Shown: in pieces, positions 722 to 62,381 of the stretch
Position numbering within the stretch: the stretch's first letter is position 1
Layout of the letters: each line of letters opens with the position of its first letter
Assembly: GCA_947176385.1 (NCBI GenBank)
Contig: CAMWQN010000002.1
Span: 8,245 to 72,244, forward strand
Reading direction: 5' to 3'
Source of the DNA: an uncultured Rickettsiales bacterium
GTDB taxonomy: Bacteria; Pseudomonadota; Alphaproteobacteria; Rs-D84
DNA: 64,000 nt
Notes under the pieces: generated by a model
What the model was told of the DNA's origin: nothing
The model's database searches: none
The model's input: only the letters and a program-made list of their open reading frames with translations
Made by a program: the position numbers and the translations under genes

Positions 722-739
722 TTCCATTGAACCAAGCAT

Positions 740-971
740 GGATGACTGGGTTCGGGACCTGAAAAATCCCATATAGAGACGATGCGGGTAATTACCATCA
801 TCGTAATCCGACACTACGTCGGTGCATTATTGCGCCGTTGTTTTATGAACCCGACTGTATTCCGGTCGGGGGTCTGTGATTATAAAACAGGACACGTCCA
901 AAGGTCACAGGGGTCATTTCTCTATATGATTTTTTCAATCCCCGACCGCCGGTTTTCATGGCGGTTTTTTT
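740..971 (+). promoter_or_regulatory. Structured 5' leader L1 with terminator/antiterminator architecture
   Basis: P1 is TGAAAAA (760-766) paired with TTTTTCA (931-937). Hairpin X1:X' is CCCGAC (850-855) with GGTCGGGGG (864-872). X2 CCCCGACC (940-947) overlaps the terminator ACCGCC-N9-GGCGGT plus T-run (945-971). Confidence 0.6.
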
Positions 972-2577: not shown

Positions 2578-3690
2578 ATGCTAAATATACGTTTTCGCAA
2601 CCAGACAAACACATGGCCGGGCTTTGTTGACCTGTTTTCAAATTTGGTTATCATTTTGATATTCTTGTTAATTGTGTTTGTATTTCTGTGGACAACAACC
2701 AGCGTATTTAACAAAAGCACCGGTGCAAAAACCGTTGCGGAATTAAAGCAAACAAATGCTGCCCAGGCTGAAAAAATCGAACAAATGGTCGCAGACGAAG
2801 AAGAAGCAAAACGTCTGTTAATCCTGGCACGCAAAGAACTGGAAAATCTGGAAACAAACAACGCAGCACTGAACACAGAAATCCAAGAAATGGATTTAAG
2901 TATCGAAGATTTGATTTCTGCATATGAAACCAAGGTTGTCGAACTGCAAACCCAGGGCACCAATATGCAGCAAACAATCACGGCATTAACCGAACAATTA
3001 AACCAGGCAAAATTGGATAAACAGCGTGCATCCGAATTGGAACAGGAACGCAAGCAATTACAGGATGAAATGAACACCCAGCGAATGGCACTGTCTGACC
3101 AACTGGCAAAATTGCAAGCGGCATTGGATGCAGCCGAAGAAAAATCCCGCAACCAAGAAGTTGAATATGTCGAAATGTCAACACGCCTGAACAAGGCATT
3201 GGCGGACAAGGTTGCAGAATTAAACAACATGTCAAAATATCAGTCGGCATTCTACAAGGCTATCAAAGAAGCATTGGGCGACAACAGCGCCATTAAACAA
3301 GAAGGCGACCGCTTCGTATTGCCCAGTGATATTTTGTTCAGCAGTGGTTCATACACCATTTCACCCGAGGGTAAAAATCAACTGCGCATGATTGCGAATG
3401 TTATCAAGAATCTGGAAAGCGAAATTCCATCTGACGTCAAATGGATTATCCGTGTTGATGGGCACACAGATTCCAAGGCGGTAATCCCAGGCACACGTGG
3501 ATACAGAAACAATTTGCAATTATCATTATTGCGTGCAACCGCAGTTGTTGATGAATTGGCACGTGCGGGCGTCAATCGCAACCGTATGTTACCCAGTGGA
3601 TTTGGCGACCTGCATCCATATGCACCAGGCAACACGCCAGCAGATTTGCAAAAGAATCGACGCATAGAATTACAATTAACCAATCTGTAA
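2578..3690 (+). CDS. MotB/OmpA-like protein with a long coiled-coil linker
   Basis: N-terminal plug/TM region is WPGFVDLFSNLVIILIFLLIVF, with Asp preceding the TM as in MotB. A Q/E/L-rich coiled coil of about 200 aa follows. The C-terminal OmpA-like peptidoglycan-binding motif is RVDGHTD..NLQLSLLRA..NRRIELQ. Confidence 0.75.
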   Translation: MLNIRFRNQTNTWPGFVDLFSNLVIILIFLLIVFVFLWTTTSVFNKSTGAKTVAELKQTNAAQAEKIEQMVADEEEAKRLLILARKELENLETNNAALNTEIQEMDLSIEDLISAYETKVVELQTQGTNMQQTITALTEQLNQAKLDKQRASELEQERKQLQDEMNTQRMALSDQLAKLQAALDAAEEKSRNQEVEYVEMSTRLNKALADKVAELNNMSKYQSAFYKAIKEALGDNSAIKQEGDRFVLPSDILFSSGSYTISPEGKNQLRMIANVIKNLESEIPSDVKWIIRVDGHTDSKAVIPGTRGYRNNLQLSLLRATAVVDELARAGVNRNRMLPSGFGDLHPYAPGNTPADLQKNRRIELQLTNL

Positions 3691-3724
3691 AATCCACCGC
3701 CCCATAACAGGGGCGGTAAATTAT

Positions 3725-3752
3725 TTGCAAGCCCTGTTTTTTATGTTATAAT
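3725..3752 (+). promoter_or_regulatory. Promoter TTGCAA-N16-TGtTATAAT (extended -10)
   Basis: TTGCAA at 3725-3730 and TGTTATAAT at 3744-3752. The same TTATGTTATAAT string recurs at 15818-15829. Confidence 0.55.
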
Positions 3753-3784
3753 TCATATTGCAACGGGAAACCGGCGCATGGGTG

Positions 3785-3912
3785 TAAGAACCCACAAACG
3801 AAAATATTTACTCCACTTTATCGGTTGGAGGGCTGTGATATATCTAAATAAGCAGCACTATACGTTTGTAGTTCTTAACCTCCAGCCGTTTGGTTTTTAC
3901 CAGACGGTTTTT
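3785..3912 (+). promoter_or_regulatory. Structured 5' leader C1 upstream of an HTH gene
   Basis: P1 is TAAGAAC (3785-3791) paired with GTTCTTA (3871-3877). X' is GGTTGGAGG (3823-3831). X2 CCTCCAGCC (3879-3887) overlaps the terminator CCGTTTGG-N6-CCAGACGG plus T-run (3886-3912). Confidence 0.55.
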
Positions 3913-3943
3913 GTTTAATCAAAAAAAAGATGGAGATAAAGAA

Positions 3944-4270
3944 ATGACACTAACAATCAATGCACGAACAATCGGATTCGCCCTGCAACGTGCACGACAC
4001 AGTACATCAATATTGTCAGACGATGTGGCACAATTGCTGAAAATATCACGCGCTGAATTAACCCTCTTTGAAAATGGCGAGGTTGAAATTCCCCCACACA
4101 TCCTTGAATCACTGTTTGCATTGGGCTTAATAACAATGCACACACGTTCCAGAATACGGGACTATAACCGCATGGCACGACAATGGCGACATATGCATAA
4201 CCGCGCAATTGATTTGCATAATAAACTGCAAAAAATTACCGACGCCACCAGCCCAATATTAAAACAATAA
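3944..4270 (+). CDS. Small XRE-like helix-turn-helix protein
   Basis: Start chosen at the ATG with GGAG RBS; the ORF track begins at 3890. HTH-like segment is ILSDDVAQLLKISRAELTLFENGEVEIP. Confidence 0.6.
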   Translation: MTLTINARTIGFALQRARHSTSILSDDVAQLLKISRAELTLFENGEVEIPPHILESLFALGLITMHTRSRIRDYNRMARQWRHMHNRAIDLHNKLQKITDATSPILKQ

Positions 4271-4276
4271 CACCAA

Positions 4277-4298
4277 AAATCCCGCAATCGCGGGATTT
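4277..4298. terminator. Bidirectional intrinsic terminator between convergent genes
   Basis: AAATCCCGC-aatc-GCGGGATTT. Confidence 0.65.
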
Positions 4299-4323
4299 CA
4301 TAAACGAAAGAAATTACAATCCC

Positions 4324-4707
4324 CTACTCTGTTATTTTTTCTATGTAATTAACATCAACTTCGGTCGTCCACAACCCACGGTCAACATCACCATACAATT
4401 TGACAGTATCCTGTGGTGTGATTGTGATTCCACGCCAATTGTCATCATCAATTTCAACAGTAATTGAATCCGCAGAATCTTTGAACAGATACTTTTCATC
4501 GCCAACACGTTGAACAATATACCCCTGTAATACAACAGGCGTGTCATCCCGCATTTCTTTGACCTGGGTTACAGTAACAACTTCATTATTGCCACCCAAA
4601 AATCCGCCCGGTCCTGTGGCAACGGTTGTAATTGTTTCTTGGAATTCAGCATGGGCTGCGCCAACAGATAAAATCGCCCCCAGTACAAACATTGAACATT
4701 TTTTCAT
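4324..4707 (-). CDS. YgiW/BOF-family periplasmic OB-fold protein
   Basis: Signal peptide present. Motif VVLQGYIVQRVGDEKYLFKDSADSITVEIDDD is typical of the bacterial OB-fold (YgiW) family. Confidence 0.7.
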   Translation of the reverse strand: MKKCSMFVLGAILSVGAAHAEFQETITTVATGPGGFLGGNNEVVTVTQVKEMRDDTPVVLQGYIVQRVGDEKYLFKDSADSITVEIDDDNWRGITITPQDTVKLYGDVDRGLWTTEVDVNYIEKITE

Positions 4708-4829
4708 GTATTTTCCCCTTGGTTATCTTGTCTTTATCCGTGCAGAAATATTATAGCACAGGTCAAATTCAAAAGACCTAGGAATGAAATTTTCATAAAA
4801 AAAAATCCCCGGACGCACCGGGGAAATAT

Positions 4830-5678
4830 TTATTTGATAACATGAACATCCATTTGCGGGAATGGGAAATTCAACTTCTTCTTTGGCAGTGTTGCATAAA
4901 TCTGTTCACGAACCGATGCCGCTGTTGAATACATATCAGCATACGACGTCCAGAAACGTACCGTCAAAACAACCGCACTGTCTGCCAAATCAGACACAAA
5001 TATTGATGGCGCCGCTGGCTTGTCCAACACGCGCGGGTCTGCCGATAATATATCCATAATAATGCTACGAGCCCGGTCAACATTATCACCATATGAAATG
5101 CCAATTGTTAAATCTGTACGACGATTGCCACCACGTGACATATTTACAATCACACCACCCGACAATGTCGCATTCGGAACAATCACAACCTGATTATCAA
5201 ATGTCTGGATTTCTGTTGTGAAAATCAGAATTTTTTTGACCACACCAGTCTGTCCACCCGGGGCAATAATTGTATCGCCAACCTTGAACGGTTTAAAGAA
5301 CAGTATTACCAATCCCCCAGCAACATTTTGCATTGTGCCCGACAATGCCATACCAATTGCCAATGCACCAGCGCCCAACGCTGCCGTAATCGCGGTCATT
5401 TGAACACCGACAGTCGTCAGAACAACAACGAATACAAATATCTTGGATATTATGCTGACAAATGACGACAGGAACGATTGTAATGATGGTTCCAATTTCC
5501 GACGTTCCATGCCATTTTTTACAACCTTGGTCAATCGTGCTGACAGCCACAATCCAACCGACAAAATCAGTAACGCCAATGCGATTTTAAAACTGAACCG
5601 CAATGCGCCTTCTATCATCTGGTGCATCAAGTCATGAAAGTTTAATGAAACCAATGGTGATGATGTATCTGGTGTCAT
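4830..5678 (-). CDS. mscS: Small-conductance mechanosensitive channel (MscS family)
   Basis: TM helices are followed by the MscS beta-domain motif FKPFKVGDTI..GVVKKI.IFTTEIQTFDNQVVIVPN. Confidence 0.8.
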   Translation of the reverse strand: MTPDTSSPLVSLNFHDLMHQMIEGALRFSFKIALALLILSVGLWLSARLTKVVKNGMERRKLEPSLQSFLSSFVSIISKIFVFVVVLTTVGVQMTAITAALGAGALAIGMALSGTMQNVAGGLVILFFKPFKVGDTIIAPGGQTGVVKKILIFTTEIQTFDNQVVIVPNATLSGGVIVNMSRGGNRRTDLTIGISYGDNVDRARSIIMDILSADPRVLDKPAAPSIFVSDLADSAVVLTVRFWTSYADMYSTAASVREQIYATLPKKKLNFPFPQMDVHVIK

Positions 5679-5745: not shown

Positions 5746-8208
5746 TTACATTACGATATCTTCGCAATCTGGTCCCTGGGTTTGAACATCACAACTTTGT
5801 TTTTTGCCAATGCCCAAGAATCCGCCTTTCTTGGTACAACTCTGTGTAGAAATCGTTGTACACACATGGCATGTACGGTTTTCGCGATTGAATAATGCAG
5901 ATACAGTTTTGGTAACACCACTGCCTGCAGTTGTTGTATATTGCGATTCCATATTTGCAGCCTGGCTCATCAAATCAGACTTCGCCATACCAGCACTGAC
6001 ATCATAACTGATTGCATATGGTGCCGTCAATGGGGTATCAACCGCCGCGGTGCCAACACCGGCACTGCCACCATTTTGTGCAATCTTTTGACACATATAT
6101 TGCGCCTGGTCAGCCGATGCATCCTTGGTCGCATCTGCGATTGCCTGATTCAGTTTCGCATTATAGTTATTTTGCGCCTGACGCAACGCGGACACTGCAA
6201 TCTGCATTTTAACCTGGGTCAACAGGTTCGGGAAACGCCCTGTGGTTTTATCATTTGCCTTGCCCGTGATTTGTGACAGGTTACGTCCATTCACACAGAA
6301 TTGAATTTCTGGATCTTGTTCAATCATTTCAATCGTACGATTGATTGTACCGGCGATATTATTCAATTCTTCTTCGATTGATGACATAATGCCATCAGCA
6401 TTGGCAACATCTGCATTGCGATTGCGTACCTGGGTCAGGTATTCCTGAACACCGATTTCGCCCGGTCCCAATTTAGTTGTATTATCTTCGCCAACATCTT
6501 TTGTGCGACCAGTTGCATCACCCATTTTGATACTGCCGAATGAAATCATACCGGTTACGCGATATATATCACCATCCTTTTGTGAACGCAAAGAACCAGT
6601 TCCCATCGTATCGTCAGTCGCAAAACGGTTGCAATCGGTGGTACTGCCACAAACTTCTTCCATTTTTGCATCAACAATATTTTGACACTGTTCCAATGCA
6701 GCATTATCAATATTCAGATACAGCCCCATCAACATAGAATCCAAATCATCCATTGAAAATGCCGGATTATTCTGTTTGCAAACAACCAGTTTATCCAATG
6801 GGCAAATATCGTGGATATAGTCATAATCCATACCCAAACAATTTTCGAAATTCGGACCGCAACGATTTTCATCGGTAAAGCAATCTTTGACCTCTTGCGT
6901 ACAGGCATCGACACGCATTGCAGCCAATTTATCTTTGACATATCCCCAGATTAACGGTTCCATACGTTCACAAGGATCAATTTCGACCTTGCAAAAACTG
7001 CGCACCATATCCGGACGGGACAAGCATGCGTCCATAGTATCTACACCCTTGCCTACTATATCATCTCTACATGCGGTCTGAATACATTGTGAAATTGTAC
7101 TTAAACATGACTGACGGAATTTAGATTCAGCCTGATTTTCTGCCAGGCGGATTGTTGGCGCAGCCTCGCGCAGGAAAGCCGGCCATACTTCATCACGCAC
7201 GACCAAGCATTGGTCCAAAACATGTTCGCAAATAAAACGCTTTGATTCCAGCATTTCCAACGTTGATGCTGTGATATCATATTTATTAACAGTTGCAACG
7301 GTTGTATTCGCGGTGGACTTTGCCTTTTGATTCTGCATATTTTCCGACGCGATTGTCGAAACACAATTTTCCCAACCATTACCACAGGCATCATCAGTCT
7401 GCATGCACTTTTTAAATTCAACCATGCATTGACCCAGGTTATATTTGTTCGCAGAATCAAAACTTTCTTTTAATGCAGTGCGAACCTCGCCCTGGGCGGC
7501 GGCTAATTCAATTTCTGCCGCAGACTTCTTTTCAGCCAGGCTGTTTTTAAATCCTTCGCAGTCGGACACAATCTGACGTGCATATAATTGATGCAAGAAA
7601 TTTGTATCTTTTTCACAGTTGGCTGGAATTTGTGCCAGGCAAACCTCTTCTGCCGCTGCAAATAATGCAGTACCTGTTTTGGTTGAAATATCGTTTATGG
7701 TTTCTTCATCATCATCGTCGTCATACAGATTGCTGTTAAACAGCGCCATTAAATCTGCACGCTTTTTTGATTTTGTTTCAGCTGCCGATAACTGGTCAAC
7801 CTTTACTAAATTACCATTTTCATCATAACGACGTTCACCAGTAAATATAATATCCGCCTGGGCACCAGCTTTGACCTTTTCCACCTCTATCGTGCGGATG
7901 CGTTCTGCTTCGACCAATATATCCTGGATTTCAGAAAATTCTTTTTCATACTTTGCACTGTCATTACTGCATGCGCAACTGCCACCATTTGTGTTATCGG
8001 CAATACAGAATTGATCCAGACATCCGAAATACGCGTCATAACATTCCTGCTGATAAAGTCCTGTTGCCGTAACCTTGTTACGAACAAAAGTCCCCTTTTG
8101 AATTGCAGATTGTTTTCCGGTATTTTTGGTGGTTGCAGCATAACATGCGGGCATCATAACAATACCCGCAATTATCATAGCAATACCAACAAATGTATTT
8201 CGCTTCAT
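5746..8208 (-). CDS. Large secreted cysteine-rich coiled-coil protein, core family member (820 aa)
   Basis: Signal peptide present. N-terminal motif is CYDAYFGCLDQFC, with conserved Cys pairs (GQCMVEFKKC, CEHVLDQC, RQSCLSTISQC, DACTQEVKDC) and a C-terminal CHVC..C..C tail. Confidence 0.85.
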   Translation of the reverse strand: MKRNTFVGIAMIIAGIVMMPACYAATTKNTGKQSAIQKGTFVRNKVTATGLYQQECYDAYFGCLDQFCIADNTNGGSCACSNDSAKYEKEFSEIQDILVEAERIRTIEVEKVKAGAQADIIFTGERRYDENGNLVKVDQLSAAETKSKKRADLMALFNSNLYDDDDDEETINDISTKTGTALFAAAEEVCLAQIPANCEKDTNFLHQLYARQIVSDCEGFKNSLAEKKSAAEIELAAAQGEVRTALKESFDSANKYNLGQCMVEFKKCMQTDDACGNGWENCVSTIASENMQNQKAKSTANTTVATVNKYDITASTLEMLESKRFICEHVLDQCLVVRDEVWPAFLREAAPTIRLAENQAESKFRQSCLSTISQCIQTACRDDIVGKGVDTMDACLSRPDMVRSFCKVEIDPCERMEPLIWGYVKDKLAAMRVDACTQEVKDCFTDENRCGPNFENCLGMDYDYIHDICPLDKLVVCKQNNPAFSMDDLDSMLMGLYLNIDNAALEQCQNIVDAKMEEVCGSTTDCNRFATDDTMGTGSLRSQKDGDIYRVTGMISFGSIKMGDATGRTKDVGEDNTTKLGPGEIGVQEYLTQVRNRNADVANADGIMSSIEEELNNIAGTINRTIEMIEQDPEIQFCVNGRNLSQITGKANDKTTGRFPNLLTQVKMQIAVSALRQAQNNYNAKLNQAIADATKDASADQAQYMCQKIAQNGGSAGVGTAAVDTPLTAPYAISYDVSAGMAKSDLMSQAANMESQYTTTAGSGVTKTVSALFNRENRTCHVCTTISTQSCTKKGGFLGIGKKQSCDVQTQGPDCEDIVM

Positions 8209-8242
8209 ATTAAGTATTCCTGATATAAATCCGTTGGTTTTA

Positions 8243-21884: not shown

Positions 21885-22580
21885 TTATTCATAATAGCAA
21901 CGGCTGCCTGCCGGAACAATCTGATATACACCTGTAACATCATAACCTTGACTTTCGGTTAAATAGCAGCCTTGGATTGTTTCATTTGCCCCAGGGTCTG
22001 ATTCCCCTGCTTTTGTGGTGGCACTCATTGGACACTGCGTACATCCCGTCATTCCCATTGCACCAAAACCCTCAATATAATTTTCCTTAATCGCGGAACT
22101 GGAACCATAAAAACCTGCAGCGCAACGATGTTTTGAACGTTTTTCCCACGTACAGGTACTGGTATTACATTCGGTCCACGTATTTGTCTGATATCCATTC
22201 CAAGAATCTTTCCAGGCATCCTCGTCATACTCAATTTCTGAATTTGGGTCACATGTCTTTGCCACACTGCACGGTTGGCATACATATACACCACCATTTC
22301 TATTGCTGCACCCCATTGCCACAAAATCTGGGTCCAACGTCAGGATATAGCCATCTTCGCACATATGACATATCTGAAATTTTCCGGCTTTACCAGTTGA
22401 TTTATTTATATAGCACAACGAATACGGAAACATATACTGTTTACAATGTGCAATATTCTGTGCGGGTTCTGCAATTGATGCACACGTTTCGTTATCAGAT
22501 GGCGCCATTCCGCATTGTGCATATGCTAATTCGGTCGTTAAAAATGTTGACATTGTAACGATTAAGAGTTTTTTATTCAT
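21885..22580 (-). CDS. Small secreted cysteine-rich protein, paralogue of 1004-1699 and 40216-40890
   Basis: Signal peptide present. The shared C-terminal module is RCAAGFYG..GCTQCP..GCYL..D.TG.Y..C.YE. Confidence 0.8.
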   Translation of the reverse strand: MNKKLLIVTMSTFLTTELAYAQCGMAPSDNETCASIAEPAQNIAHCKQYMFPYSLCYINKSTGKAGKFQICHMCEDGYILTLDPDFVAMGCSNRNGGVYVCQPCSVAKTCDPNSEIEYDEDAWKDSWNGYQTNTWTECNTSTCTWEKRSKHRCAAGFYGSSSAIKENYIEGFGAMGMTGCTQCPMSATTKAGESDPGANETIQGCYLTESQGYDVTGVYQIVPAGSRCYYE

Positions 22581-22812
22581 TATTCAATCTCCTGCTGTTG
22601 TAAAAACAAAACCACCATTTTTGGTGGTCAGGAGGTTGATGACAATTACAGGAATTGTGTTGCGTATTGGATATTTCGCAAACCCTCCTGACCCTGGGTC
22701 AGGAGTTTGTTTTTCGTCTGAACATCAAAACAGGCGCAATACGCGCCACAAGAATCCATTCTGACGCCTGTATAGAGGTCATCACACCCCATCAACGGAA
22801 TCCCCGTTGACA
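22581..22812 (-). promoter_or_regulatory. Structured 5' leader L2, homologous to 40891-41131
   Basis: See findings for detail. Elements are P1 TGATGAC/GTCATCA, the X1:X' hairpin, and X2 overlapping the terminator ACCACC-N6-GGTGGT plus U-tract. Confidence 0.65.
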
Positions 22813-23095: not shown

Positions 23096-25858
23096 TTAGA
23101 ATTTGTAATTTACCCCTATATTTAATTCCATATTTGAATAGTCTGATGCTGTTCCATATTTTGCAGATAAATAACCATCAAAAGCCCTACCCAAAGTGAC
23201 TGATAGCCCGCATTCCAATTGAGCGACATTGAAGTCTTCGACTGATTTTATATCGCCAATATCACTTATGTTCACATTATTCCCTTTGGTTGATGTAATC
23301 AAATATGAAGGTCTGATGAATAAATCTATTGCTCCTAATGATTGTGAAAAAGTAATACCAAAATCTGCCAGAATCTGATTTATATTATCATACTCAACCG
23401 TTCGTCCATAGACATCGGTCAAACTATCCAAGGAGAGATTTATATATGTTATGCCAGCCACAGGAGCAAATTTAAAGCCAGTCCCAACATCAATTAAATA
23501 TTGTGTTTTAAGCATTATGCCTGTTTGCGTCCCGGAAAAATCTGTCATGAATCCATCATCTGTTTTGACCTCAGACTGTAATAATCCACCATAAACCCCA
23601 GCAAAAACATTAAAGTTTTTAGGATTATAACGCATATAGCCACCAAATATTTGGCTGTGACCGTCTATCCAACTTTCTAAATCGGCATGAATTTCTTTGG
23701 CTTTACCAGAGAAAGAATGTTTAGCCTCTCGTATTGAACCCATTACTCCCATAGTCCAATTGTTGCCCAGCGATTTGTTGTATCCGAAATCACCCCCGAA
23801 TACCTTTGAATCCATTTCTGCAATCGTATCATTCTTTATTTGGGCAAAAACAGGTGTTATCCATATATTGCTGTTTTTCGGTACATAAAATGCGCGATTC
23901 ATTGAATTATGCGTTTGATCTAACATTGCGCTTTGCATGGCGGCATATGCCACTATTTCTGGATAAGAACGTACAATGTGCGGTAAATCTGGCTCAATAT
24001 CATTATTATCGTCATTATTATCATTATTGTCATTAAAGTCGCCATCATAATCAGGATTTTTGATATTATTCATTTCCAATGCCCAGGTTTTGGCGCTTCC
24101 ATCATAGAAATTCACATCATACATATATGGGCTGCCGAATACGCGAAATACGCTGAAAGAATTGTCATTTCCCTGACCAGTAGCCGTCGCAAACACAATA
24201 TCCTGTTTGCCACGAATATCCGTATCATCTAATGCATGGACCACAAGCTTTGTTTGCCCCGTAACATCCCCATCTATATTTAGAATATCAGCCGTCATAT
24301 CGGCTGGATTTACATTCAGATGAATATAGGAATTGCTTTGCGTAATCAATGCACCCAGACGAACACTTTCAATATACGTGTTTGCCATATCAAATGTGGC
24401 GTTATTCAATGTCATAATTGGGTATTTATCGTTTGACAGGAATTGTCCTTTGCCATATATGCCATTATCAAATTTCATGACGGCATTATTTATATTTATG
24501 TTACCCGCGTTAATAACAAAATTGTTGATATATAACGCCCCTGTTCCATCACCACTGATATTAATATCATATGGGTTCGCGCCATCTATGTTGTCATTAA
24601 AAGTATACGAACCCATATTTTGCAAATCAAAGTTTAATGCCTTACCATTCGTACCGCCCATATATATGGCATTATAATTAACACCATTTTTATCAATTAT
24701 ATGATTTCCACTGAACTTGTAATTATTATTATCGACACGAAATGATATGTTATTTTCCGAATAAATCGCACCACCACATGCATCGCCATTTGCGGAATTC
24801 GCGTAATTGTTAATGAAATTGCCGGATATTCTGTCTATTTGTCCCAATGTATAAATTGCACCACCCATTGCCTGGGATTCTCCGACCGCATAGTTATTGA
24901 TAAAATCCGCCTGGATATTGCTTAGTACCGTTGATGTGCCGGGCAGGATGCTATAAAACATCGCACCACCGCTGGCATGTGATTTAGAAACAGCATGATT
25001 GTCGATAAAATTTCCTGTAATATCAGATAATTTATATTGTTCATCATTTGCATCTTGAACTATATAAATTGCGCCACCGGTAGCCGCTTGGTCTGCATTA
25101 ACCGAATTGCTGATAAAATCTGCATTTATTTTTCCTGGAACCCCATTAACATATAATGCACCACCACGCGCGTCCCATGTCGCATTGATATAATTTGCAA
25201 TAAAGTTTGCATTTATGCTGGTTTGTATTTCATAAGTCTTATCATTTGTTCCGTTATAAATCGCACCACCATATCCGGATTTTGAGCCTGATATATAATT
25301 CCCTATGAAATTTCCAGAAATATGCTCTATTTCACCTCGGTCACCATTGCTTCCACGGGCACTGTAAATTGCCCCACCCATTGCATAATTACTTGCAGTC
25401 ATAATTCCATTATTAATAAAATCCCCATATAATTCCCGAATAAGGCTGGTATTATGTAACGCACCACCGTCAACCGAGCTATTTATTTCATGGGACGTAA
25501 TTTTGTTTGATATAAAATCCATGTATATTTTGTTTTCCCATGTGGAAACCTGTGTGGTCTTATCTGTGGTATTACGAACATATCCAATCATTTTTCCCAT
25601 TATCGGTGTAATGTTCGCGCCAACCGACGAAACCGAATAGTTCCAGTTTTGGTCAACAATGCCATCATTGGTTTCCATATATGTGGTTATGTTACCAGGT
25701 GATGATGTTTGTTGAAAATTCATTTCATATCCACTGGGGATTGATGATTGTCCGTTCGCATATAAATAGTCCAATGTAGGCGTATAATTTTCAAAATCAA
25801 ATGCCCCAAAAGCACTGTTAACAGATAAAATAAGCGGTAATATAAATATTTTTTGCAT
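23096..25858 (-). CDS. Autotransporter with polymorphic-membrane-protein (Pmp)-type repeats
   Basis: Signal peptide present. Seven alternating FxxN / GGA[ILM] repeats (for example GNFIGNY..YGGAIYNG). C-terminal beta-barrel region ends in ..GVNYKF. Confidence 0.85.
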   Translation of the reverse strand: MQKIFILPLILSVNSAFGAFDFENYTPTLDYLYANGQSSIPSGYEMNFQQTSSPGNITTYMETNDGIVDQNWNYSVSSVGANITPIMGKMIGYVRNTTDKTTQVSTWENKIYMDFISNKITSHEINSSVDGGALHNTSLIRELYGDFINNGIMTASNYAMGGAIYSARGSNGDRGEIEHISGNFIGNYISGSKSGYGGAIYNGTNDKTYEIQTSINANFIANYINATWDARGGALYVNGVPGKINADFISNSVNADQAATGGAIYIVQDANDEQYKLSDITGNFIDNHAVSKSHASGGAMFYSILPGTSTVLSNIQADFINNYAVGESQAMGGAIYTLGQIDRISGNFINNYANSANGDACGGAIYSENNISFRVDNNNYKFSGNHIIDKNGVNYNAIYMGGTNGKALNFDLQNMGSYTFNDNIDGANPYDINISGDGTGALYINNFVINAGNININNAVMKFDNGIYGKGQFLSNDKYPIMTLNNATFDMANTYIESVRLGALITQSNSYIHLNVNPADMTADILNIDGDVTGQTKLVVHALDDTDIRGKQDIVFATATGQGNDNSFSVFRVFGSPYMYDVNFYDGSAKTWALEMNNIKNPDYDGDFNDNNDNNDDNNDIEPDLPHIVRSYPEIVAYAAMQSAMLDQTHNSMNRAFYVPKNSNIWITPVFAQIKNDTIAEMDSKVFGGDFGYNKSLGNNWTMGVMGSIREAKHSFSGKAKEIHADLESWIDGHSQIFGGYMRYNPKNFNVFAGVYGGLLQSEVKTDDGFMTDFSGTQTGIMLKTQYLIDVGTGFKFAPVAGITYINLSLDSLTDVYGRTVEYDNINQILADFGITFSQSLGAIDLFIRPSYLITSTKGNNVNISDIGDIKSVEDFNVAQLECGLSVTLGRAFDGYLSAKYGTASDYSNMELNIGVNYKF

Positions 25859-26118
25859 TGCGATACCCCCATGTATAAAAAAAGACCGTCATTGGATGAC
25901 GGTCGGGGAGTTCACAAATCATTCTGTTATTGATTCCATTGGTCTTTCGGCGAACCGTATTATATAACCAACAGCCCCCCGACCAGTATATTTGGTCAGG
26001 GATAAATAACGATGCAAAAACAACAGAATGTCGGATTAACGACGCTTCTAAGATTTGCACCGAACAGAATAGACCTGTGAAAGTCCCGAACACGTTTCCC
26101 AACGAGTTCACAAAAAAT
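25859..26118 (-). promoter_or_regulatory. Structured 5' leader L3, homologous to 36753-37020
   Basis: P1 is TTCACA/TGTGAA. X1:X' is CCCTGACCA with TGGTCGGGGGG. X2 CTCCCCGACC overlaps the terminator GACCGTCAT-N3-ATGACGGTC plus U-tract. Confidence 0.65.
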
Positions 26119-34787: not shown

Positions 34788-36752
34788 TCAATCAATATCC
34801 ATATTATACACAGAATACACACTTCCATTATATTCAACATTCAACGCCTTTTTTCTGGATTCTGGTATCATATCACCATATAACACATGATTTCCATATT
34901 GTACTGACAAACTGGGGTGCGTGCGCCAGTCATTATGCAACCATACGGAATATTGTCCAAATCGCATAACCCGACCACAATCAGTCAAACTGTCGGCGCC
35001 ACGCCCATACCCGATTGTCATTAAATTATCCGGACACTTGTTACGTTTACCACTGTTACCATAATTTGTATAATTTATATCATTCCAATACCCAGGTCCA
35101 ACATTCGCGCACTGCGTCGCACGTGCCGTTGCCAAATACGTACCCGCATCACACTTTATCTGACATTCATTAATCGACTGCGGTGCTGTATTATCAGGTG
35201 CACGGTCAGCATAATAATCCGGACAATCTTGACAAGAATTCCCAGACGCATACTGTCCCATCGGACATACGATTTTGCCATCAATACACACAAAATCAGC
35301 TGGACAAACCGTACACACATCACCATCACGAAAATATCCGTCATTACACCGCCAGGGGCAATCGTTACCATCAGGACTGCCTGCACCAATATAAATTGCA
35401 TTTTCCGGTGCATTTGTACATGCTTTATTATACTTAAACCGCATATACTCCCCTAAATGTACAGCATTCGCCAGATATCGACCGACGGTATCTGTCTGAA
35501 CCCAGTAAATATCAGAGCTCCAATATCTATCTCCTTGCCATGGCAAATCTTTAGTATATACGCCATCAGGTGTTTCAAACAACGCCCCCCCTATCCTACA
35601 ATTGGCAGCGTTTGTAATAAGCCCACTAACAGAATATGTAGTCACCCTTAAATTGTCAGCATTAATCAGCCTGTCCTCAGATGGCAATACAGATTCCAGT
35701 ACACCAGCATCAAATTCAGGACACCGAAACATTGTATTATTATTGCAATAATTGGCACCAGTGCACACAGAACACATATTGCCATTCAACCAATATCCAT
35801 CAAAACAATTAATTTGTGTGCTGCCGGCGGGACAAGTTGAATTCTGCGGACAGACATCACACCGATTGACATTCTTATAAAATCCTGAAACACAATCAAA
35901 ATCCGTCACAGATCTGCACGTTGAATTTTCCACAGGACACATTTCGCATACGGCACCATTATCAAAAAAGCCCGGATTACAATTTGGTGGCATACCAGAA
36001 TCGCCCGACGCATACGATAGACATTGACCATCTGAATGCCAGAACAACCCATCCGGACATTTTTGTTCCTTGTGTCCGGGACATACAACACCATCGGGAC
36101 ATGGAACACATTCTGCACCCATTTTATAAAATCCGGGGGCGCAATATTGCATATAATTGCTAATTGTCGCGATACCATCTGGACAATAATATTCACCCGG
36201 ACACTGAAAACAATGGTATGAACTTTTATAATAACCTTCGATACACGTAACAGATGAAATCGTTGAACCAGCGGGACAATGCAATTCAGCCCCACAGTCC
36301 ATACAATACGTACCATTCCAATTATAATACAAATACCCAGCACCACAACTGATTAATTTTTCACCATCACAAACATGCCCAGCACAAGACCGACACATAA
36401 ACCCATCACGAAACCAGCCGTCATCACAATGAAATGTATCGGTCCCACCCACGCATGTTGCATTATTAACACATTGTGAACAAACACCGTTATATAAATA
36501 TGTTCCAGGCATGCACGAAAATTCTGTGGGTCCTGTACATGTGCTGTTTGGTGGGCATGCCAGACATTGGTTATTACCATCTGCATAAAATCCGTCATTA
36601 CAAGAATATGTTTCACCATCACATGTTGCGTTATACATACAGTTGACACAATTACCACCAGATAAATACTGATTCACATCACATGTTGCAGCATTGGCAA
36701 CACCACCTGCGCCCACCAACAACAGTACAACAGAAACCAACAGTCGTATCAT
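34788..36752 (-). CDS. Secreted protein made of furin/VSP-like cysteine-rich repeats
   Basis: Start placed at MIRLLVSVVLLLVGAGGVANA with AAGGGGA RBS. The ORF-track start at 36782 falls inside the leader terminator. Repeats have the form C..G.Y...G.C..CP.NSTC throughout. Confidence 0.8.
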   Translation of the reverse strand: MIRLLVSVVLLLVGAGGVANAATCDVNQYLSGGNCVNCMYNATCDGETYSCNDGFYADGNNQCLACPPNSTCTGPTEFSCMPGTYLYNGVCSQCVNNATCVGGTDTFHCDDGWFRDGFMCRSCAGHVCDGEKLISCGAGYLYYNWNGTYCMDCGAELHCPAGSTISSVTCIEGYYKSSYHCFQCPGEYYCPDGIATISNYMQYCAPGFYKMGAECVPCPDGVVCPGHKEQKCPDGLFWHSDGQCLSYASGDSGMPPNCNPGFFDNGAVCEMCPVENSTCRSVTDFDCVSGFYKNVNRCDVCPQNSTCPAGSTQINCFDGYWLNGNMCSVCTGANYCNNNTMFRCPEFDAGVLESVLPSEDRLINADNLRVTTYSVSGLITNAANCRIGGALFETPDGVYTKDLPWQGDRYWSSDIYWVQTDTVGRYLANAVHLGEYMRFKYNKACTNAPENAIYIGAGSPDGNDCPWRCNDGYFRDGDVCTVCPADFVCIDGKIVCPMGQYASGNSCQDCPDYYADRAPDNTAPQSINECQIKCDAGTYLATARATQCANVGPGYWNDINYTNYGNSGKRNKCPDNLMTIGYGRGADSLTDCGRVMRFGQYSVWLHNDWRTHPSLSVQYGNHVLYGDMIPESRKKALNVEYNGSVYSVYNMDID

Positions 36753-37020
36753 CAAAATCCCCTTGTAAAAAAAGACCGTCATCAGAACACGACGGTCGGG
36801 GTGGTTCGAAAATCATCTTATCATTGATTCTGTCAGTCTTTCGGCGGAACCGTGTTTTATAACCGACAGCCCCCCGACTGAGATAGTCAGGGATAAATAA
36901 CGATACAAAGTCACAGGAAATTATTGGAATAACGATGACCTATGCTTTTGCACCGGATAAGAATAGCCTTCGACAGCCCCGAACCTGTGTCCCCACAAGT
37001 TCGTTTAAATAATAACATAA
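36753..37020 (-). promoter_or_regulatory. Structured 5' leader L4, homologous to 25859-26118
   Basis: P1 is TCGAA/TTCGA. X1:X' is CCCTGACT with AGTCGGGGGG. X2 CCACCCCGACC overlaps the terminator GACCGTC-N10-GACGGTC plus U-tract. Confidence 0.65.
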
Positions 37021-37104
37021 ATCATGATGGTCGTCCACCACATTTGTGTGGAGATAGATTTTTTAACGACAATGCGTTTTTCATGCGATGGACAACCATA
37101 AGAA

Positions 37105-37260
37105 CAAAAAAATGCCACCTAAAAAAACACAGGCGGCTGGAGGTTGAGACCAATAATCAAGTAGTATTGTCGGTTTATTCAATATATTCACCGAACTCCA
37201 ACCAGTGTTGGATTACAATATCCGCAATGCGGATACGACTTGATATGGGGTCTCAATCCC
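37105..37260 (-). promoter_or_regulatory. Structured leader module C3, stacked upstream of L4
   Basis: P1 is TTGAGACC (37256->37249) paired with GGTCTCAA (37151->37144). The hairpin is CCAAC-ACTG-GTTGG. X2 CCTCCAGCC (37143->37135) overlaps the terminator GCCGCCT-N10-AGGTGGC plus U-tract. Confidence 0.55.
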
Positions 37261-37374
37261 AGCGCAACAAATCGTTGCACCGGCTGCATTATACTACAAC
37301 TTTTTTATTTCGCTACAATTTTATTAAAAAAAGTTCCGATAAATATCGGAACTTTTTTTACGCATTTGTAATTT

Positions 37375-40215: not shown

Positions 40216-40890
40216 TTATGGTTTAATAGGTTCCAATTCAACAATTTCACCGCCGGTTAACCCATTGGAATATTCACAATTTTCTGTATATGTACCACTG
40301 CCAGTTGTATCTGAGAAAGATGTTCCTGCAGGCAAATAGCAACTTGTGACATATTTGCTGCCGGCTGCACTGGTACCGTATGTGCCACTGCCAGATTGTG
40401 GACATCTGGTACAACCTGATGTTCCATTGGTACTGGAACCATAATATCCTGCGGCGCAACGATATGTAGTTGATATTACAGCACAACCACCTGTACATGT
40501 GCATGAACGTCTTGCCTGTTGTTCGTATCCAGCGGTTCCAGTTGCAGTGAAACCGATATCACTGGCGCATGTACCGCATGATATGCAACATTGATACACC
40601 AGTTCATATGTAGTGTTACACGAATTGCTGAGTTCTGATATTGATACTTGTTTTCTTTCTGTGCCACTTGGGCATGATGTACAACTTTGAAAACGTATTA
40701 CATTTCCCGAACCACTTTTATAACATACATTTGTATGGTTGCCTTCCCGACATGTTGTTATTGCCTCCATTGGGGCAGCAGTACATGTTGTTGACGTACA
40801 CACGCCATTATCGAGTGAAAGTACAGCATTGGCTGGTTTTTCTATTGGCATGATTGTTATCATTGCCAATATAATTAGTTTATGTTTCAT
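40216..40890 (-). CDS. Small secreted cysteine-rich protein, paralogue of 1004-1699 and 21885-22580
   Basis: The shared C-terminal module is YRCAAGYYGSS..GCTRCP...SCYLPAGTSFSDTTGSGTYTENCEYS. Confidence 0.8.
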   Translation of the reverse strand: MKHKLIILAMITIMPIEKPANAVLSLDNGVCTSTTCTAAPMEAITTCREGNHTNVCYKSGSGNVIRFQSCTSCPSGTERKQVSISELSNSCNTTYELVYQCCISCGTCASDIGFTATGTAGYEQQARRSCTCTGGCAVISTTYRCAAGYYGSSTNGTSGCTRCPQSGSGTYGTSAAGSKYVTSCYLPAGTSFSDTTGSGTYTENCEYSNGLTGGEIVELEPIKP

Positions 40891-41131
40891 TATTCAATCT
40901 CCTGTTTTTTCGTAATGAAAAACCACCCAAAATTCAGGTGGTCAGGAGGTTGATGACAATCCATAGAATTGTGTGCTTATTCGTTATATTCGCAACCCTC
41001 CTGCCCACAAATTGGTCAGGAGTTGTTTTTCCGTCGTAACAGTAAAATTGGCGCAAAATGCGCGCCCCTATAAACATATTCCGACGCTATGGCAGAGGTC
41101 ATCACACCTCATCATTGGAATTCCCAATGAC
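40891..41131 (-). promoter_or_regulatory. Structured 5' leader L5, homologous to 22581-22812
   Basis: Same helices as L2 with compensatory changes. The terminator is ACCACC-N9-GGTGGT plus U-tract (40922-40942). Confidence 0.65.
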
Positions 41132-49143: not shown

Positions 49144-52100
49144 ATGAAAAAATTATTATCAGTACTATTCGCAATAATTATCACCCTGCCCGCGTTGGCA
49201 ATGGATGTCAGTATCACTATTATTGATGAAAACAATGAACCATTGATTGGTGCCTCTGTCATCGTGGCAAACACACAAAATGGTGTAGTCACCGATACAG
49301 CGGGTCACGCAACTTTACGAAATATCCCAGACGACTCATCTATACGTATCAGCTATGTTGGATACCAAGAACAAACATTGCCAGCACAATCAACAATGTC
49401 TGTCAAAATGGAACCAACCACTCTGAATTTAGAAAGTGTAGTAGTAGTCGCATGTTCCCGTGCCAACGGTATAAAAACAACTAAGTGCGAAAACTGTGCC
49501 GATCCTGACAAATGTACCATCGACAGCTGCTCGGGTACATGTGTTGTACAGGAATGCCATGAACCATGCTACAAGAAAAAAGGTAACAAATGCGAAATGC
49601 AAAGTGTTACTGGTGGTACATTTACATTCATAAACAATCAATGCGGATTAACCTGTTTATCAATTGCAGGTTATGCCCAAGATCCAAAGAATCAATGGAA
49701 ATGTACACAAGATTGCACATCATCCATTACCGACCCAAATGTAAAGAAGGCACAATACAAAGGAAGCATAACACCAAACAACCTAAAATGCGAAATTATT
49801 GATTGCAAGGGTAAATATCATCCATCTGATGACAAACAAAGTTGCATCCCAGACCAAGGCGATTGCACCCCTGAACAATTGCAAGCCGTGCATGCCACCA
49901 CCGGATATTTAATCACCAGGACCAATAAATGTGTTCCAAAGGAATGTATCCAACCACAATACAGACCAGATGGCAAAGGCGATGACCGCGTATGCGTTGA
50001 CATGGTTGGCACAGCATGCAATGTAAAAAATGCGACCAGTGCAAAATTCGCAGTCCGTGATAATAAATTGATATGTGTTGTTGATACATGCGACACTGCC
50101 AATGGTTATGTAAAATCTGCTGATAGCTTATCATGCATCAAAGACTGCCTGAGTACTATCAAGGAAAAAGTTCCACTGGCAAGCGCTGCCGAATACGACA
50201 GCACTGGTAAGTGTGTAATTAAAAAATGCGATAAAAAGAATGGTAAAAAATACATCCCCAGTGATGATGGTCAAGATTGTGAAGAAACCGAACGTGATTG
50301 CAATAAACAAACCGACAGCCAAATCTGGCCGGAACATGCAACCGCCGCATTATACAAGAAATCAAAAACAGGTGGCACTGCAAAATGCGTTGCAACAGAT
50401 TGTGAACCAGGATACAAACCAGTCAAAGGACAATGTGTCAATCAGGTCGGACAACCATGTAAAGTATCACATGCCAAAGAAGCCAAATTTGAACTGCGTG
50501 ACAATAAATTGGTATGCGTAGTCGTATCATGCGACACCGCCAAGGGTTACACAAAAACCGCGGACGGTTTGGAATGTATCAAAGACTGTCTGTCAACAGC
50601 GAAAAACAAAGAACCCCTGGCAACCAAGGCTGAGTTCGACAGCAACGGTAAATGCATAATCAAAAAGTGTGATAAAAAGGATGGTAAAAAATACATCCCC
50701 AGTGATGACGGTCAAAAATGTGAAGAAACCGAACGTGACTGCAATAAACAAACCGACAGCAACATATGGCCGGAACACGCAACCGCCGCAGCATACAAAA
50801 AATCAAAAACGGGTGGTGCTGCAAAATGTGTCGCAACAGAATGTGAAGACGGCTATGACGTTGAGGGTGGTAAATGCACATCTGTAAATGATTCAGACTG
50901 TGATAAAAAACCTGAAAATTCAAAAAAATCACATCGTTACTATGACGTCAGCCAGCAACAAACATTGTGCATCATCGACGAATGCAAGGATGGATATAAA
51001 ATCAGCAACGACATGCTGTCATGCATACTGGAATCTGCATTAAGCGAAGAAGATGCAAAAAAACGTATGGATGAATTAAAAGAAAACGCCCTGAAAATGA
51101 AAGAAAAAGAACAGTCTATTGAAAATAAACTGTTGGGCGCCGCTGGTATGGCAACGGTTGGTATTGGCGGAATGAATATCGCATCTGCCCTGTCTGAACA
51201 AAGCGCTGACCGCAAAGCAGAAGATGATATGAAAGCATATCTGGCAACATTCCGCTGTGACTATGGTCAGGGTCGCAATATCCTGGGTGGTGAAACAAAT
51301 ATTCAATTACCAGGTGCCAGCGAATTGATGCAATACACAACCGAATATAAACAATTGGCATTAAACCTGAAATCTGACAAAGCCGCATTGGGAATGATGC
51401 CGGGCATTGAATCAGAAACCGTATTTGATTCTGCAACAACTGGTCTTTATGATGATGTTGGTATCGGCACACAGAAAGGTGCATTTACATCATTGTCACG
51501 TGCCCTCTTGGATGAAAATGGCGCTGACGCCGCCGAATGGCAGGCAATGAAAGACGCCACCGCAAAAAAATTAAAGACCGGTGTAATTGTTGCTGGTGCG
51601 GGCGCATTGGGAACATTGGCGGGCAACCTGGCTATCAATCATGGCAATGGTGACCAATCCGCTAATATAATGAACCAATACGAAGGCTTACAGGAAGATA
51701 TTCCAGACATCACACTGCCACGCATACCATGTTCTAATTTCCCAGATACAACTGGTGTTGGTTATGTACCAAACTGTGAATGCAAAACCCCAAATTCATA
51801 CTTTGATGAACAGACTCGCAAATGTGAACAATGCGGTACAAATGAACACGTCGAAAACAAACAATGCGTATGCAACGACGGCTTCCACCGTGATGCAAAC
51901 AGTGGCAACTGCATTGCAAATCAACCGGAACAAACCTGTCAGAATTTGCCAGCCGGCAGTGGCGCAACAGGTTCAGGCAATTTCCCAAATTGTGATTGCA
52001 AAGATCAAAATGCAACATTTGATAAACAATCATTGAAATGCAAATGCAAGGACGGATTTTCAAATCCAAATGGGGGTCAATGCCTGCAAATATGCGCAGG

Positions 52101-61946: not shown

Positions 61947-62291
61947 ATGAAAAAAGCAATTTTAGCATCTTTGTTCGCAGCAACTGTTTGCGGCACAGCG
62001 ATCGCATCAGACGGTGGCGTTTATTATGAAACAGAAACTGTTACCCAAAACGTTTCTGTAAAAATGGATACCACAACATATGATGCTGACACATACGTTG
62101 CACCAAGTCGCACGATTGTTGCAGTACGTCCATGTGCACGTGTTGCAGCAAAACCTGTTCGCGTAAAAACATATACCGAAGTTGTTGACCATTACCAGGT
62201 ATATCAGCCTGTAACGGTTTATCAGCCAGTTGGTGCATATGCACAGCGTCGCATAATTGAATCTGCCCGTCCATGCGGATGCGGTAAATAA
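61947..62291 (+). CDS. Small secreted hypothetical protein
   Basis: Signal peptide is MKKAILASLFAATVCGTAIA. A TTGACA / TGTACTAT promoter lies upstream and a strong terminator lies downstream. Confidence 0.65.
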   Translation: MKKAILASLFAATVCGTAIASDGGVYYETETVTQNVSVKMDTTTYDADTYVAPSRTIVAVRPCARVAAKPVRVKTYTEVVDHYQVYQPVTVYQPVGAYAQRRIIESARPCGCGK

Positions 62292-62310
62292 TCATTAACG
62301 CATAAAATAA

Positions 62311-62338: not shown

Positions 62339-62381
62339 ATATTCCCAAAACGGTGCAAGTTACCATCTATGGTGGGATTTT

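Follow-up and report, generated by a model that had tools for sequence, protein, structure and literature searches.

A probable bistable attenuator leader, distantly related to sRNA-Xcc1, upstream of small HTH and secreted-protein genes in gut Alphaproteobacteria

In the phages P1 and P7, the c4 antisense RNA exposes two short segments, a' and b', whose targets lie on the same transcript, upstream (a1 and b1) and at the icd-ant ribosome-binding site (RBS) (a2 and b2). The system is laid out in the order a1 b1, c4, a2 b2 and icd/ant, its specificity is conferred by co-varying codes, and the c4 precursor is a substrate of RNase P. This c4/immI control of the antirepressor was reportedly described by Citron and Schuster in 1990 and by Biere et al. 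in 1992. Part of a further account (PMC8201110) is concerned with the control of Ant by C4. Another small RNA (sRNA), sRNA-Xcc1 (Rfam family RF02221), was first seen in Xanthomonas campestris; the literature describes it as a trans-acting RNA that integron cassettes carry ahead of symE and of which Xylella has seven copies, and on Northern blots it is a stable RNA of 88 nucleotides (nt) (PMC2996969). It has been known since 2010. The present article concerns an element at positions 3725-3943 of a 64,000-nt stretch of DNA, hereafter the window, from an uncultured Rickettsiales bacterium of the order Rs-D84 (contig CAMWQN010000002.1), a lineage with genomes smaller than 1 Mb and a predicted dependence on other cells (PMC12306168). 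Comparative analysis suggests that this element is probably a promoter followed by a cis-acting, bistable leader of approximately 150 nt, an intrinsic terminator and a Shine-Dalgarno (SD) sequence, which together would control the downstream gene of a small helix-turn-helix (HTH) protein.

The OmpA-like gene upstream (2578-3690) ends in a terminator of its own (3696-3717), and the leader therefore opens a new transcription unit. Its promoter is the top match within positions 3000-5000 (10/12, with TG), and transcription probably starts at about 3759-3760. The arrangement TTGCA-N17-TGnTATAAT recurs at two orthologous loci (L001 and L002 among the loci collected here), and a -10 box with at least five of six matching positions is found in 83 of 85 relatives. 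From 5' to 3', the family is composed of the promoter, hairpins P(-1) and P0, the variable 5' strand of helix H, an optional hairpin Pv, an A-rich linker and X1, followed by X', hairpin P3, hairpin P4 (whose loop is the 3' strand of H), the 3' strand of P1, X2, the terminator and the SD sequence (Table 1). The loop of P(-1) is GAAA, as is typical of HTH-type leaders, and GNGUU in surface-protein leaders. The P3 loop and the A-rich linker contain invariant unpaired nucleotides, and P3 of the 3725-3943 copy has only a 15-nt loop (GAUAUAUCUAAAUAA), without a distal hairpin. The 189-nt leader (3758-3946) folds at -60.1 kcal/mol, compared with -38.3 +/- 3.6 kcal/mol in dinucleotide shuffles (z = -6.0, 0 of 200).

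The sequence-only reading of this locus had proposed an attenuator-type leader, and its promoter, P1, X1, X', X2, terminator, GGAG and ATG were all found where it had placed them; helix H and the hairpins P(-1), P0, P3 and P4 are additions to that description. Among the relatives, a terminator of at least five contiguous base pairs (bp) with a T-run follows X2 in 81 of 85, and in 75 of these 81 the 5' arm of that terminator starts 3-4 nt within X2. The start codon lies only about 40-60 nt past X2, a distance that could not accommodate a second promoter, and the 31 nt between the terminator and the HTH gene are likewise too short for one. A terminator stem and a competing helix are thus found upstream of an open reading frame (ORF) with no promoter in between. 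The terminator, the antiterminator X':X2 and the anti-antiterminator X1:X' are all present, conserved ahead of HTH orthologues with identities of only 55-75%, and co-varying as a triple among copies, and in this respect the comparison supports the proposed attenuator.

Two conformations of the leader are proposed. In state A (OFF), a1 and b1 would pair approximately 70 nt downstream with a' and b', and the resulting helices P1 and H would enclose the X1:X' hairpin and P3; X2 would be left free, the full terminator would form, and RNA polymerase would halt at the T-run. In state B (ON), the local hairpins P0 and P4 would cap a1 and b', and X':X2 would close the three-helix fold that defines sRNA-Xcc1, stripping three to four basal G-C pairs from the terminator and permitting read-through into the HTH gene. 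Constrained folding places state A below state B in 79 of 81 full leaders, with a mean difference of -7.8 kcal/mol. For the window copy, B is favoured before the terminator has been made (-42.0 kcal/mol versus -38.3 for A), and A is favoured once it is included (-53.5 versus -50.2 for B). Leaders of small HTH genes are closer to balance than those of secreted-protein genes, at -3.3 versus -7.1 kcal/mol before the terminator. We infer that state A corresponds to termination and state B to read-through, the leader being mostly OFF by default.

Covariation was assessed mostly on 86 homologous leaders (alignment A2). P1 is paired in 97.5% and exhibits changes on both sides in five of six pairs (one of them, for example, as AU 44, CG 30, GC 4 and UA 4), while P0 has such changes in all three of its pairs (GC 51, AU 19, GU 12). 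P3 covaries, its central pair being GC in 31 copies, UA in 28 and CG in 24, and P4 covaries through exchanges among UA, AU and CG. The X1:X' helix is paired in 95.8%; X':X2 is 97% paired, with four of nine pairs compensatory when variant copies are included, the variation in X' and X2 being drawn solely from later covariance-model matches and window copies. Helix H is represented by 83 distinct sequences among the 86 copies, yet its strands match their own partners over a mean of 7.9 nt versus 5.2 nt for partners taken from other copies. The 5' strand of P1 lies within the loop and 3' strand of P0, and the 3' strand of H lies within the loop and 3' strand of P4. H3' either adjoins the 3' strand of P4 or runs into it, and P1 shares nucleotides with both P0 and P4, so that P1 + H and P0 + P4 are mutually exclusive alternatives. 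On this comparative evidence, both helix sets exist, are under selection, exclude each other and overlap the terminator; it is rare for both conformations of a switch to be visible by covariation, and the mechanism is directly testable.

Within the window, X1, X' and X2 vary jointly among copies. The common type I has the triple CUCCAACC / GGUUGGAGG / CCUCCAACC, and type II has CCCUGACC / GGUCGGGGGG / CCCCGACC. The type-I variant copies at 22624 and 40938 have CUCCUGACC / GGUCAGGAGG / CCUCCUGACC, with GGGCAGGAGG entered as X' of the second in Table 1. Such joint change is what a three-way switch predicts. A single trans factor reading a fixed X', such as the anti-SD of 16S rRNA, CsrA at a GGA site or one sRNA, was rejected because X1, X' and X2 change jointly within one genome; an X' version lacking GGA also exists (GGUCGGGGG).

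The HTH protein of 108 amino acids (aa) has only six relatives among 5.8 billion clustered proteins. It matches Pfam HTH_31 weakly (E = 0.005), and a profile built from its orthologues matches XRE-type HTH structures with E = 2e-4 to 5e-3. The leader is also found in front of the HTH gene on the contigs of three relatives (protein identity 55-71%), where the helices are conserved with compensatory changes that fall in P1, H and P3. The P1 pair, for instance, is TAAGAAC/GTTCTTA in the window, ATGATAAC/GTTATCAT in L001 and TAAAGGC/GTCTTTA in L002, and the P3 stem is GCTG/CAGC, GTCG/CGAC and CCCG/CGGG, respectively.

Beyond these orthologues, a degenerate pattern derived from the copies at 3725-3943 and 15840 was run on a collection of species-representative genomes and returned at least 118 stretches. 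At least 87 true copies are among the pattern matches listed, with up to four matches per genome, and nearly all of them are in gut or rumen metagenome-assembled genomes (MAGs) named Candidatus Enterousia or uncultured Alphaproteobacteria. The full-length covariance model, R1, which describes state A, finds 96 copies in the collected loci, in gut Alphaproteobacteria MAGs of the order Rs-D84 / Candidatus Enterousia. The hosts of this order include humans, mice, ruminants, horses and chickens, in whose guts it lives (PMC12306168), and no description of RNA elements in Enterousia or Rs-D84 was found in the literature. Copies have a constant orientation and a short distance to the downstream ORF, with their own promoter and terminator. 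Among 79 downstream proteins scanned, XRE-type HTH families are foremost (HTH_31 15, HTH_19 11 and HTH_3 6, multiple matches per protein being possible), followed by Listeria-Bacteroides-repeat proteins (5), ABC exporters (2), Ephrin-receptor-like Cys-rich proteins (2) and many secreted proteins without a Pfam match. The topology had been said to be common to HTH and surface-protein leaders, and a single model indeed matches both, the HTH leaders at 84-86 bits and the Cys-rich-protein leaders at 55-78 bits. The relatives' downstream genes fall into small XRE-type HTH proteins and signal-peptide proteins, and of the two roles suggested for the small HTH genes, that of co-controlled targets of the same RNA family is the one to which this distribution points.

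The connection with sRNA-Xcc1 emerges from the part of the leader between X' and X2. At Rfam 15 gathering thresholds, the window contains two tRNAs only and no riboswitch or cis-regulatory family; RF02221 is not matched by the 3725-3943 copy at E <= 10, nor anywhere in a whole-window scan at E <= 0.5. Apart from the core matches that follow, scans by E-value brought up no other significant family. The X'-to-X2 cores of several leaders align with the whole length of RF02221 (positions 1-87), scoring 36-40 bits where the gathering score is 53: 37.0 bits for L039, 38.8 and 39.6 for L071, and 36.0 bits (E = 6e-5) for window positions 25893-25984. Local scans with RF02221 gave E = 3e-5 to 6e-5 for consensus-like relatives and the type-II window copy, and a genuine sRNA-Xcc1 member (L122) reaches 72.6 bits. 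In the reverse direction, a core model, R2, was built from 38 Rs-D84 cores, four of them type II; with E-values that are rough, it matches the sRNA-Xcc1 elements, at their exact positions, in L124 (41.5 bits, E = 1e-8), L123 (30.4 bits, 6e-6) and L122 (19.6 bits, 2e-3). R1 gave no match to L122, and only the core model connects the families.

The structure that Rfam gives for sRNA-Xcc1 is exactly state B, namely, a 9-bp closing stem (G-rich/C-rich) corresponding to X':X2, P3 with an A/U-rich internal loop GAAUA...GAAUA, P4 and an unpaired linker of 6-7 nt. Alignment A5 supports this fold with 95% pairing and compensatory changes in 10 of 18 pairs. The P3 loop motif GA(A/U)AUA...AAUAA is present in all leader copies and resembles P3 of sRNA-Xcc1, in which the internal loop AAUACAA...GAAUA surrounds a distal CCC-GAAA-GGG hairpin; type-II leaders have UAUAAUAC, a hairpin and GAAAG here, and type-I leaders with an insert have GAAUAA, a hairpin and AAAUAA. 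sRNA-Xcc1 elements and leaders alike immediately precede an ORF of the same strand. The leaders differ in being chromosomal, with 5-8 copies per 64 kb, whereas sRNA-Xcc1 sits in integron cassettes, prophages and plasmids before symE, ant and BRO genes. The targets of the leaders are surface proteins and HTH regulators instead of antirepressors or toxins, and, unlike sRNA-Xcc1, the leaders possess X1 as well as a canonical terminator that is fused to X2. They are not members of RF02221 by the Rfam cut-off and are filed here as a putative chromosomal variant of the sRNA-Xcc1/c4-like kind, a distant and expanded relative.

The mobile-element copies of sRNA-Xcc1 are themselves instructive. On a P. 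aeruginosa plasmid (L122, NZ_CP093017, 1090-1320), a genuine element lies 38 nt ahead of a BRO-family gene, and others occur just before Ant/BRO genes in a Stx2 phage (L124, AP012539, 1397-1630) and in Aggregatibacter phage S1249 (L123, 1400-1600); sRNA-Xcc1-like elements likewise stand immediately before the antirepressor genes of Stx2, Mannheimia and Aggregatibacter phages. They, too, have a P0-like upstream hairpin, whose loop pairs with the linker while an adjacent segment pairs with the P4 loop. Two of the three copies checked have downstream complements, at least one of which overlaps the SD sequence (TTCAGAA and CTAAAGGAGG in L124, CCAAGCAGAGG in L122). Their layout is c4-like (a1b1/a2b2), larger than the Rfam model and at odds with the label of a free-standing trans-acting sRNA. 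It points to sRNA-Xcc1 elements being components of a more extensive c4-like module, whose paired targets would lie upstream and at the RBS of antirepressor, BRO or symE genes. A terminator-like hairpin was also observed in these copies between the upstream targets and the core.

The c4 layout of a1b1, RNA and a2b2/SD is matched exactly by these copies upstream of ant. In the leaders, the upstream half of it is present, a' pairing with a1 and b' with b1, while a second target copy at the RBS, as in L124 and L122, is lacking. Across the family, complements of a'/b' extend over 7.68 nt upstream for own partners versus 5.21 nt for cross partners, and none rises above background downstream near the RBS (5.37 versus 5.34 nt in 84 leaders); in the 3725-3943 copy, no downstream target was seen by eye. 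Because the complements are upstream only, the pairing is intramolecular. The output also differs, c4 acting by translational block and Rho termination and the leader by an intrinsic terminator, and RF01695 (c4) gave no covariance-model or sequence match in the window scans. With classical terminator/antiterminator leaders, such as riboswitch platforms, T-box and trp-type leaders, the element has in common the three-way competition among X1:X', X':X2 and X2:terminator, decided during transcription. Unlike them, it has no known aptamer, tRNA-binding elements or leader peptide, and its "sensor" consists mostly of the copy-specific long-range helices P1 and H, each competing with a local hairpin (P0 or P4). 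A phage-immunity RNA device has probably been recruited to chromosomal gene control, and given this antisense-RNA phage-antirepressor ancestry and the gene-specific address helices, a competitor for a1/b1 or a'/b' at the level of RNA, or of a protein or processing, is favoured over a metabolite as the switching input. In order of preference, the candidates are an RNA-level competitor or processing event, a protein on the conserved P3 loop, and a small ligand.

Several other explanations deserve consideration, of which the first concerns the main product of the locus. It is possible, though unlikely, that the product is chiefly a trans-acting sRNA of the sort demonstrated for phage c4 and claimed for sRNA-Xcc1, either the terminated RNA of approximately 150 nt or a processed X'-to-X2 core, with HTH expression arising from leak-through. 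The reciprocal matches with sRNA-Xcc1, the stability of that RNA on Northern blots, the exposure of a' and b' in state B and the P1 code that sibling leaders of one genome can have in common all speak for it; moreover, given a strong terminator and a favoured state A, short RNAs should abound. What tells against it is that the only significant complements of a'/b' are located upstream in the same leader, that H codes are nearly all unique, and that each copy stands at a fixed short distance from an ORF without a promoter of its own. Such an sRNA would be compatible with cis attenuation, the two not being exclusive.

A related proposal, also held to be doubtful, is that each leader operates a private switch, in which core RNAs in the closed fold expose a' and b', bind in trans to a1 and b1 on transcripts still being made from their own gene, but not to those of other genes, and block the OFF fold, producing gene-specific positive feedback. 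If this were true, dozens of surface proteins and small regulators would be switched heritably ON or OFF, resembling phase variation, and a reduced-genome, host-dependent gut bacterium would be achieving this with a phage-immunity RNA module that it had domesticated, needing neither DNA rearrangement nor a large set of protein regulators. Phage and integron sRNA-Xcc1 would then be the antisense part of a c4-like a1b1/a2b2 antirepressor or toxin switch and not a free-standing virulence sRNA.

A riboswitch is comparably improbable. In this explanation, the junction of P1/H, Pv, P2 and P3 would be an aptamer for a metabolite, ion or second messenger, and the ligand would stabilise state A (OFF) or B. 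The large fold with seven to eight covarying helices, the invariant unpaired P3 loop and A-rich linker, and the terminator/antiterminator platform are in its favour. In other bacteria, cyclic di-GMP (c-di-GMP) riboswitches control adhesin-like surface proteins and regulators, a regulon of the same kind as that behind the leaders. The likeness to c-di-GMP-I/II riboswitches, which extends to the multi-copy leader and the terminator, is a functional analogy only, as the GEMM models showed no similarity in the window scans, and the leaders match no known riboswitch family. The genes downstream, encoding HTH regulators, secreted proteins and two ABC exporters, include no metabolic or transport gene pointing to a ligand, and the fold is dominated by helices that differ in every copy (P1 and H) rather than by a constant pocket. 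A ligand is also unneeded in the phage and plasmid relatives, which sit before antirepressor genes with antisense-like a/b pairs.

About as unlikely is a protein-dependent attenuator, in which a protein would bind the P3 loop or the A-rich linker, the candidates being Hfq, an RNase (such as RNase P on the X':X2 stem) and a dedicated antiterminator. The retention of the P3 motif from gammaproteobacterial phages to Rs-D84 suggests a conserved partner, and Hfq-binding signatures have been proposed for the Xylella homologues of sRNA-Xcc1 (PMC12189769). For RNase P, the precedent of the c4 precursor and the RCCA that follows the closing stem in phage and plasmid copies (L124 and L122) can be cited, against which the window copy has GUUU after X2 instead of RCCA. 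No candidate protein emerged from the analysis.

A repeated or mobile DNA element (REP/MITE-like) or chance complementarity without RNA function would account for multiple copies with highly similar cores, but it is very improbable in view of the compensatory double changes in six helices between copies, the constant orientation and distance to the ORF, the promoter and terminator in all copies and the shuffle z-score of -6. Least credible of all is a ribosome-mediated leader-peptide attenuator, for which an SD-like X' and a 46-aa ORF (3778-3918) in the window copy could be adduced, since no leader ORF is conserved among the 86 copies, such ORFs range from 3 to 57 codons with AUG in only 23 of the 86, and the indels of P3 and Pv are out of frame.

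For the cis-acting bistable leader itself, several points weigh on the other side. The interpretation rests wholly on comparative sequence analysis and folding energies. The first 86 copies were gathered with a pattern that fixed X' and X2, which makes the invariance of these strands in alignment A2 uninformative. The X1 of the window copy has a length of just 5 nt, and the overlap of X2 with the terminator is short (2-4 nt in the window copy, 3-4 in most). In the minimum-free-energy fold of the whole leader, X':X2 coexists with a shortened terminator hairpin of 7 bp, so that read-through in state B is a matter of inference. As state A is the stabler in nearly all copies, the leader would, according to these models, act as a constitutive damper in the absence of a modulator, and no effector was identified in the analysis. 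Pseudoknot alternatives, in which P0 and P1 form together, are also sterically possible.

The leaders would constitute a large, hitherto undescribed RNA regulon in an uncultured lineage, with secreted Cys-rich proteins and small HTH regulators under one leader type and approximately one copy per 8-13 kb in the window, and they are now linked to sRNA-Xcc1.

Table 1. Elements of the 3725-3943 leader and further copies of the leader in the window
Feature	Positions	Strand	Sequence, partner or basis
Promoter	3725-3752	+	-35 TTGCAA (3725-3730), 16-nt spacer, extended -10 TGtTATAAT (3744-3752)
P(-1), 5'-terminal hairpin	3759-3778	+	GAAA tetraloop 3767-3770; fold, alignments
P0 hairpin	3779-3794	+	3779-3783 with 3790-3794; fold, covariation; state B only
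P1 5' strand (a1)	3785-3791	+	TAAGAAC; partner 3871-3877, state A
Helix H 5' strand (b1)	3794-3800	+	ACAAACG; partner CGTTTGT 3863-3869, state A
X1, anti-antiterminator strand	3811-3815	+	CTCCA; partner X' in state A
X', switching strand	3823-3831	+	GGTTGGAGG; partner X1 (state A) or X2 (state B)
P3 hairpin	3832-3856	+	3832-3836 with 3852-3856; A/U-rich conserved loop GATATATCTAAATAA
P4 hairpin	3857-3872	+	3857-3862 with 3867-3872; fold, covariation; state B only
Helix H 3' strand (b')	3863-3869	+	CGTTTGT; own- versus mismatched-partner comparison
P1 3' strand (a')	3871-3877	+	GTTCTTA; covariation
Linker, unpaired in state B	3873-3878	+	Fold
X2, antiterminator strand	3879-3887	+	CCTCCAGCC; partner X' in state B; 3' end shared with the base of the terminator stem
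Intrinsic terminator	3884-3909, T-run 3908-3912	+	CCGTTTGG-N6-CCAGACGG, 11 pairs; terminator prediction
SD sequence and 108-aa XRE-like HTH gene	3932-4270	+	GGAG 3932-3935, ATG 3944, stop 4270
Type-I leader (the 3725-3943 copy)	3763-3889	+	R1 84.5 bits
Type-I leader upstream of 78-aa HTH-like ORF 16045-16281	15840-15994	+	R1 86.4 bits
Type-I leader, first of tandem pair before 664-aa Cys-rich gene 34788-36782	37133-37277	-	R1 78.4 bits
Type-I leader before 224-aa Cys-rich secreted protein 40216-40890 (8.5% Cys)	40938-41126	-	R1 65.6 bits; variant triple CUCCUGACC / GGGCAGGAGG / CCUCCUGACC
Type-I leader before 231-aa Cys-rich secreted protein 21885-22580 (7.4% Cys)	22624-22806	-	R1 54.6 bits; variant triple CUCCUGACC / GGUCAGGAGG / CCUCCUGACC
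Type-II leader before Cys-rich gene 1004-1699	738-949	+	Weak R1 match (14 bits), by eye; X1 CCCGAC, X' GGUCGGGGG, X2 CCCCGACC, P1 TGAAAAA/TTTTTCA, H ATATAGAGA/TCTCTATAT, terminator
Type-II leader before 920-aa secreted protein 23096-25858	25893-26061	-	Core 25893-25984 matches RF02221
Type-II leader, second of tandem pair before gene 34788-36782	36801-36957	-	Weak R1 match

In the 64-kb window, R1 recovers five strong copies, and three more, diverged copies of type II were recognised by eye after weak matches. One of the seeds suggested by the sequence-only reading, 37105-37260, proved to be a true copy, although on the minus strand and at 37133-37277; a plus-strand placement was discarded, as 37040-37330(+) aligned poorly in MAFFT and the covariance model placed the copy on the opposite strand. 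The genes behind the window copies encode two small HTH proteins, four signal-peptide proteins with 7.4-8.7% Cys (one behind the tandem pair) and one secreted protein of 920 aa; a comparison of the two HTH proteins of the window found no relation. R1 detected no leader at the large signal-peptide proteins with 4-7% Cys at 5746-10411(-), 49144-52854(+), 53414-55639(-) and 56860-59847(-); either some Cys-rich secreted genes escape this RNA or their leaders are too diverged to detect.

Type-II leaders have X1 CCCUGAC(C), X' GGUCGGGGGG and X2 CCCCGACC, a P3 of the form CUGUNGGUUAUAWAAYACGG..CCGAAAGAC and a terminator of the form GACCGUC..GACGGUCUUUUUUU, and they are nearer to sRNA-Xcc1 (36 bits) than type I. 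At 36801-37277(-), one promoter is followed by a type-I and then a type-II leader in tandem, both equipped with a terminator, ahead of the 664-aa Cys-rich gene, an arrangement resembling that of tandem riboswitches. L100 (3400-3737) has a head-to-tail pair of type-I leaders approximately 195 nt apart, the first of which lacks a clear terminator and is not followed by an ORF; it may be a copy in decay.

The P1 code can be common to sibling leaders, TAAGAA occurring in the copies at 3725-3943 and 15840 and TGATGAC in those at 22624 and 40938. Three paralogous secreted-protein genes of one MAG (CAJOGD01; L030, L063 and L066) likewise have the P1 code TAACGAC in common, but each has an H helix of its own, altered on both strands in a compensatory manner (TTTAAGGATG, TTCAAGCTG and TTCCGAG); to judge from these codes, H seems to be a fast-evolving specificity element. 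Typical leaders were also found on three contigs (L006, L012 and L044) of CAZJGX01, labelled uncultured Muribaculaceae (Bacteroidota), which are likely mis-binned Alphaproteobacteria contigs rather than a sign of a wider host range.

Among other candidates, the alphaproteobacterial CCUCCUCCC "cuckoo" sRNAs and other alphaproteobacterial sRNA families were set aside for want of an Rfam match, and inspection of P3 for a K-turn or an 11-nt receptor gave no fit. A search of the window for an antisense partner of the P3 loop returned matches only in the leaders themselves. Weak matches to the Brucella sRNA BSnc120, at 24-32 bits against a cut-off of 114, were seen at 62267-62355(+) in the window and in a related MAG (L010, 592-653 and 3712-3819) and are probably due to chance or low complexity.

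The flanking genes in the window are of the housekeeping kind (MotA/ExbB-like, OmpA-like, BOF, MscS, DsbA-like and ClpX). The DsbA-like thioredoxin-fold protein, which has an N-terminal membrane domain, is encoded at 14754-15707(+), just upstream of the 15840 leader. An enzyme that forms disulfides is in keeping with the abundance of secreted Cys-rich proteins in this genome.

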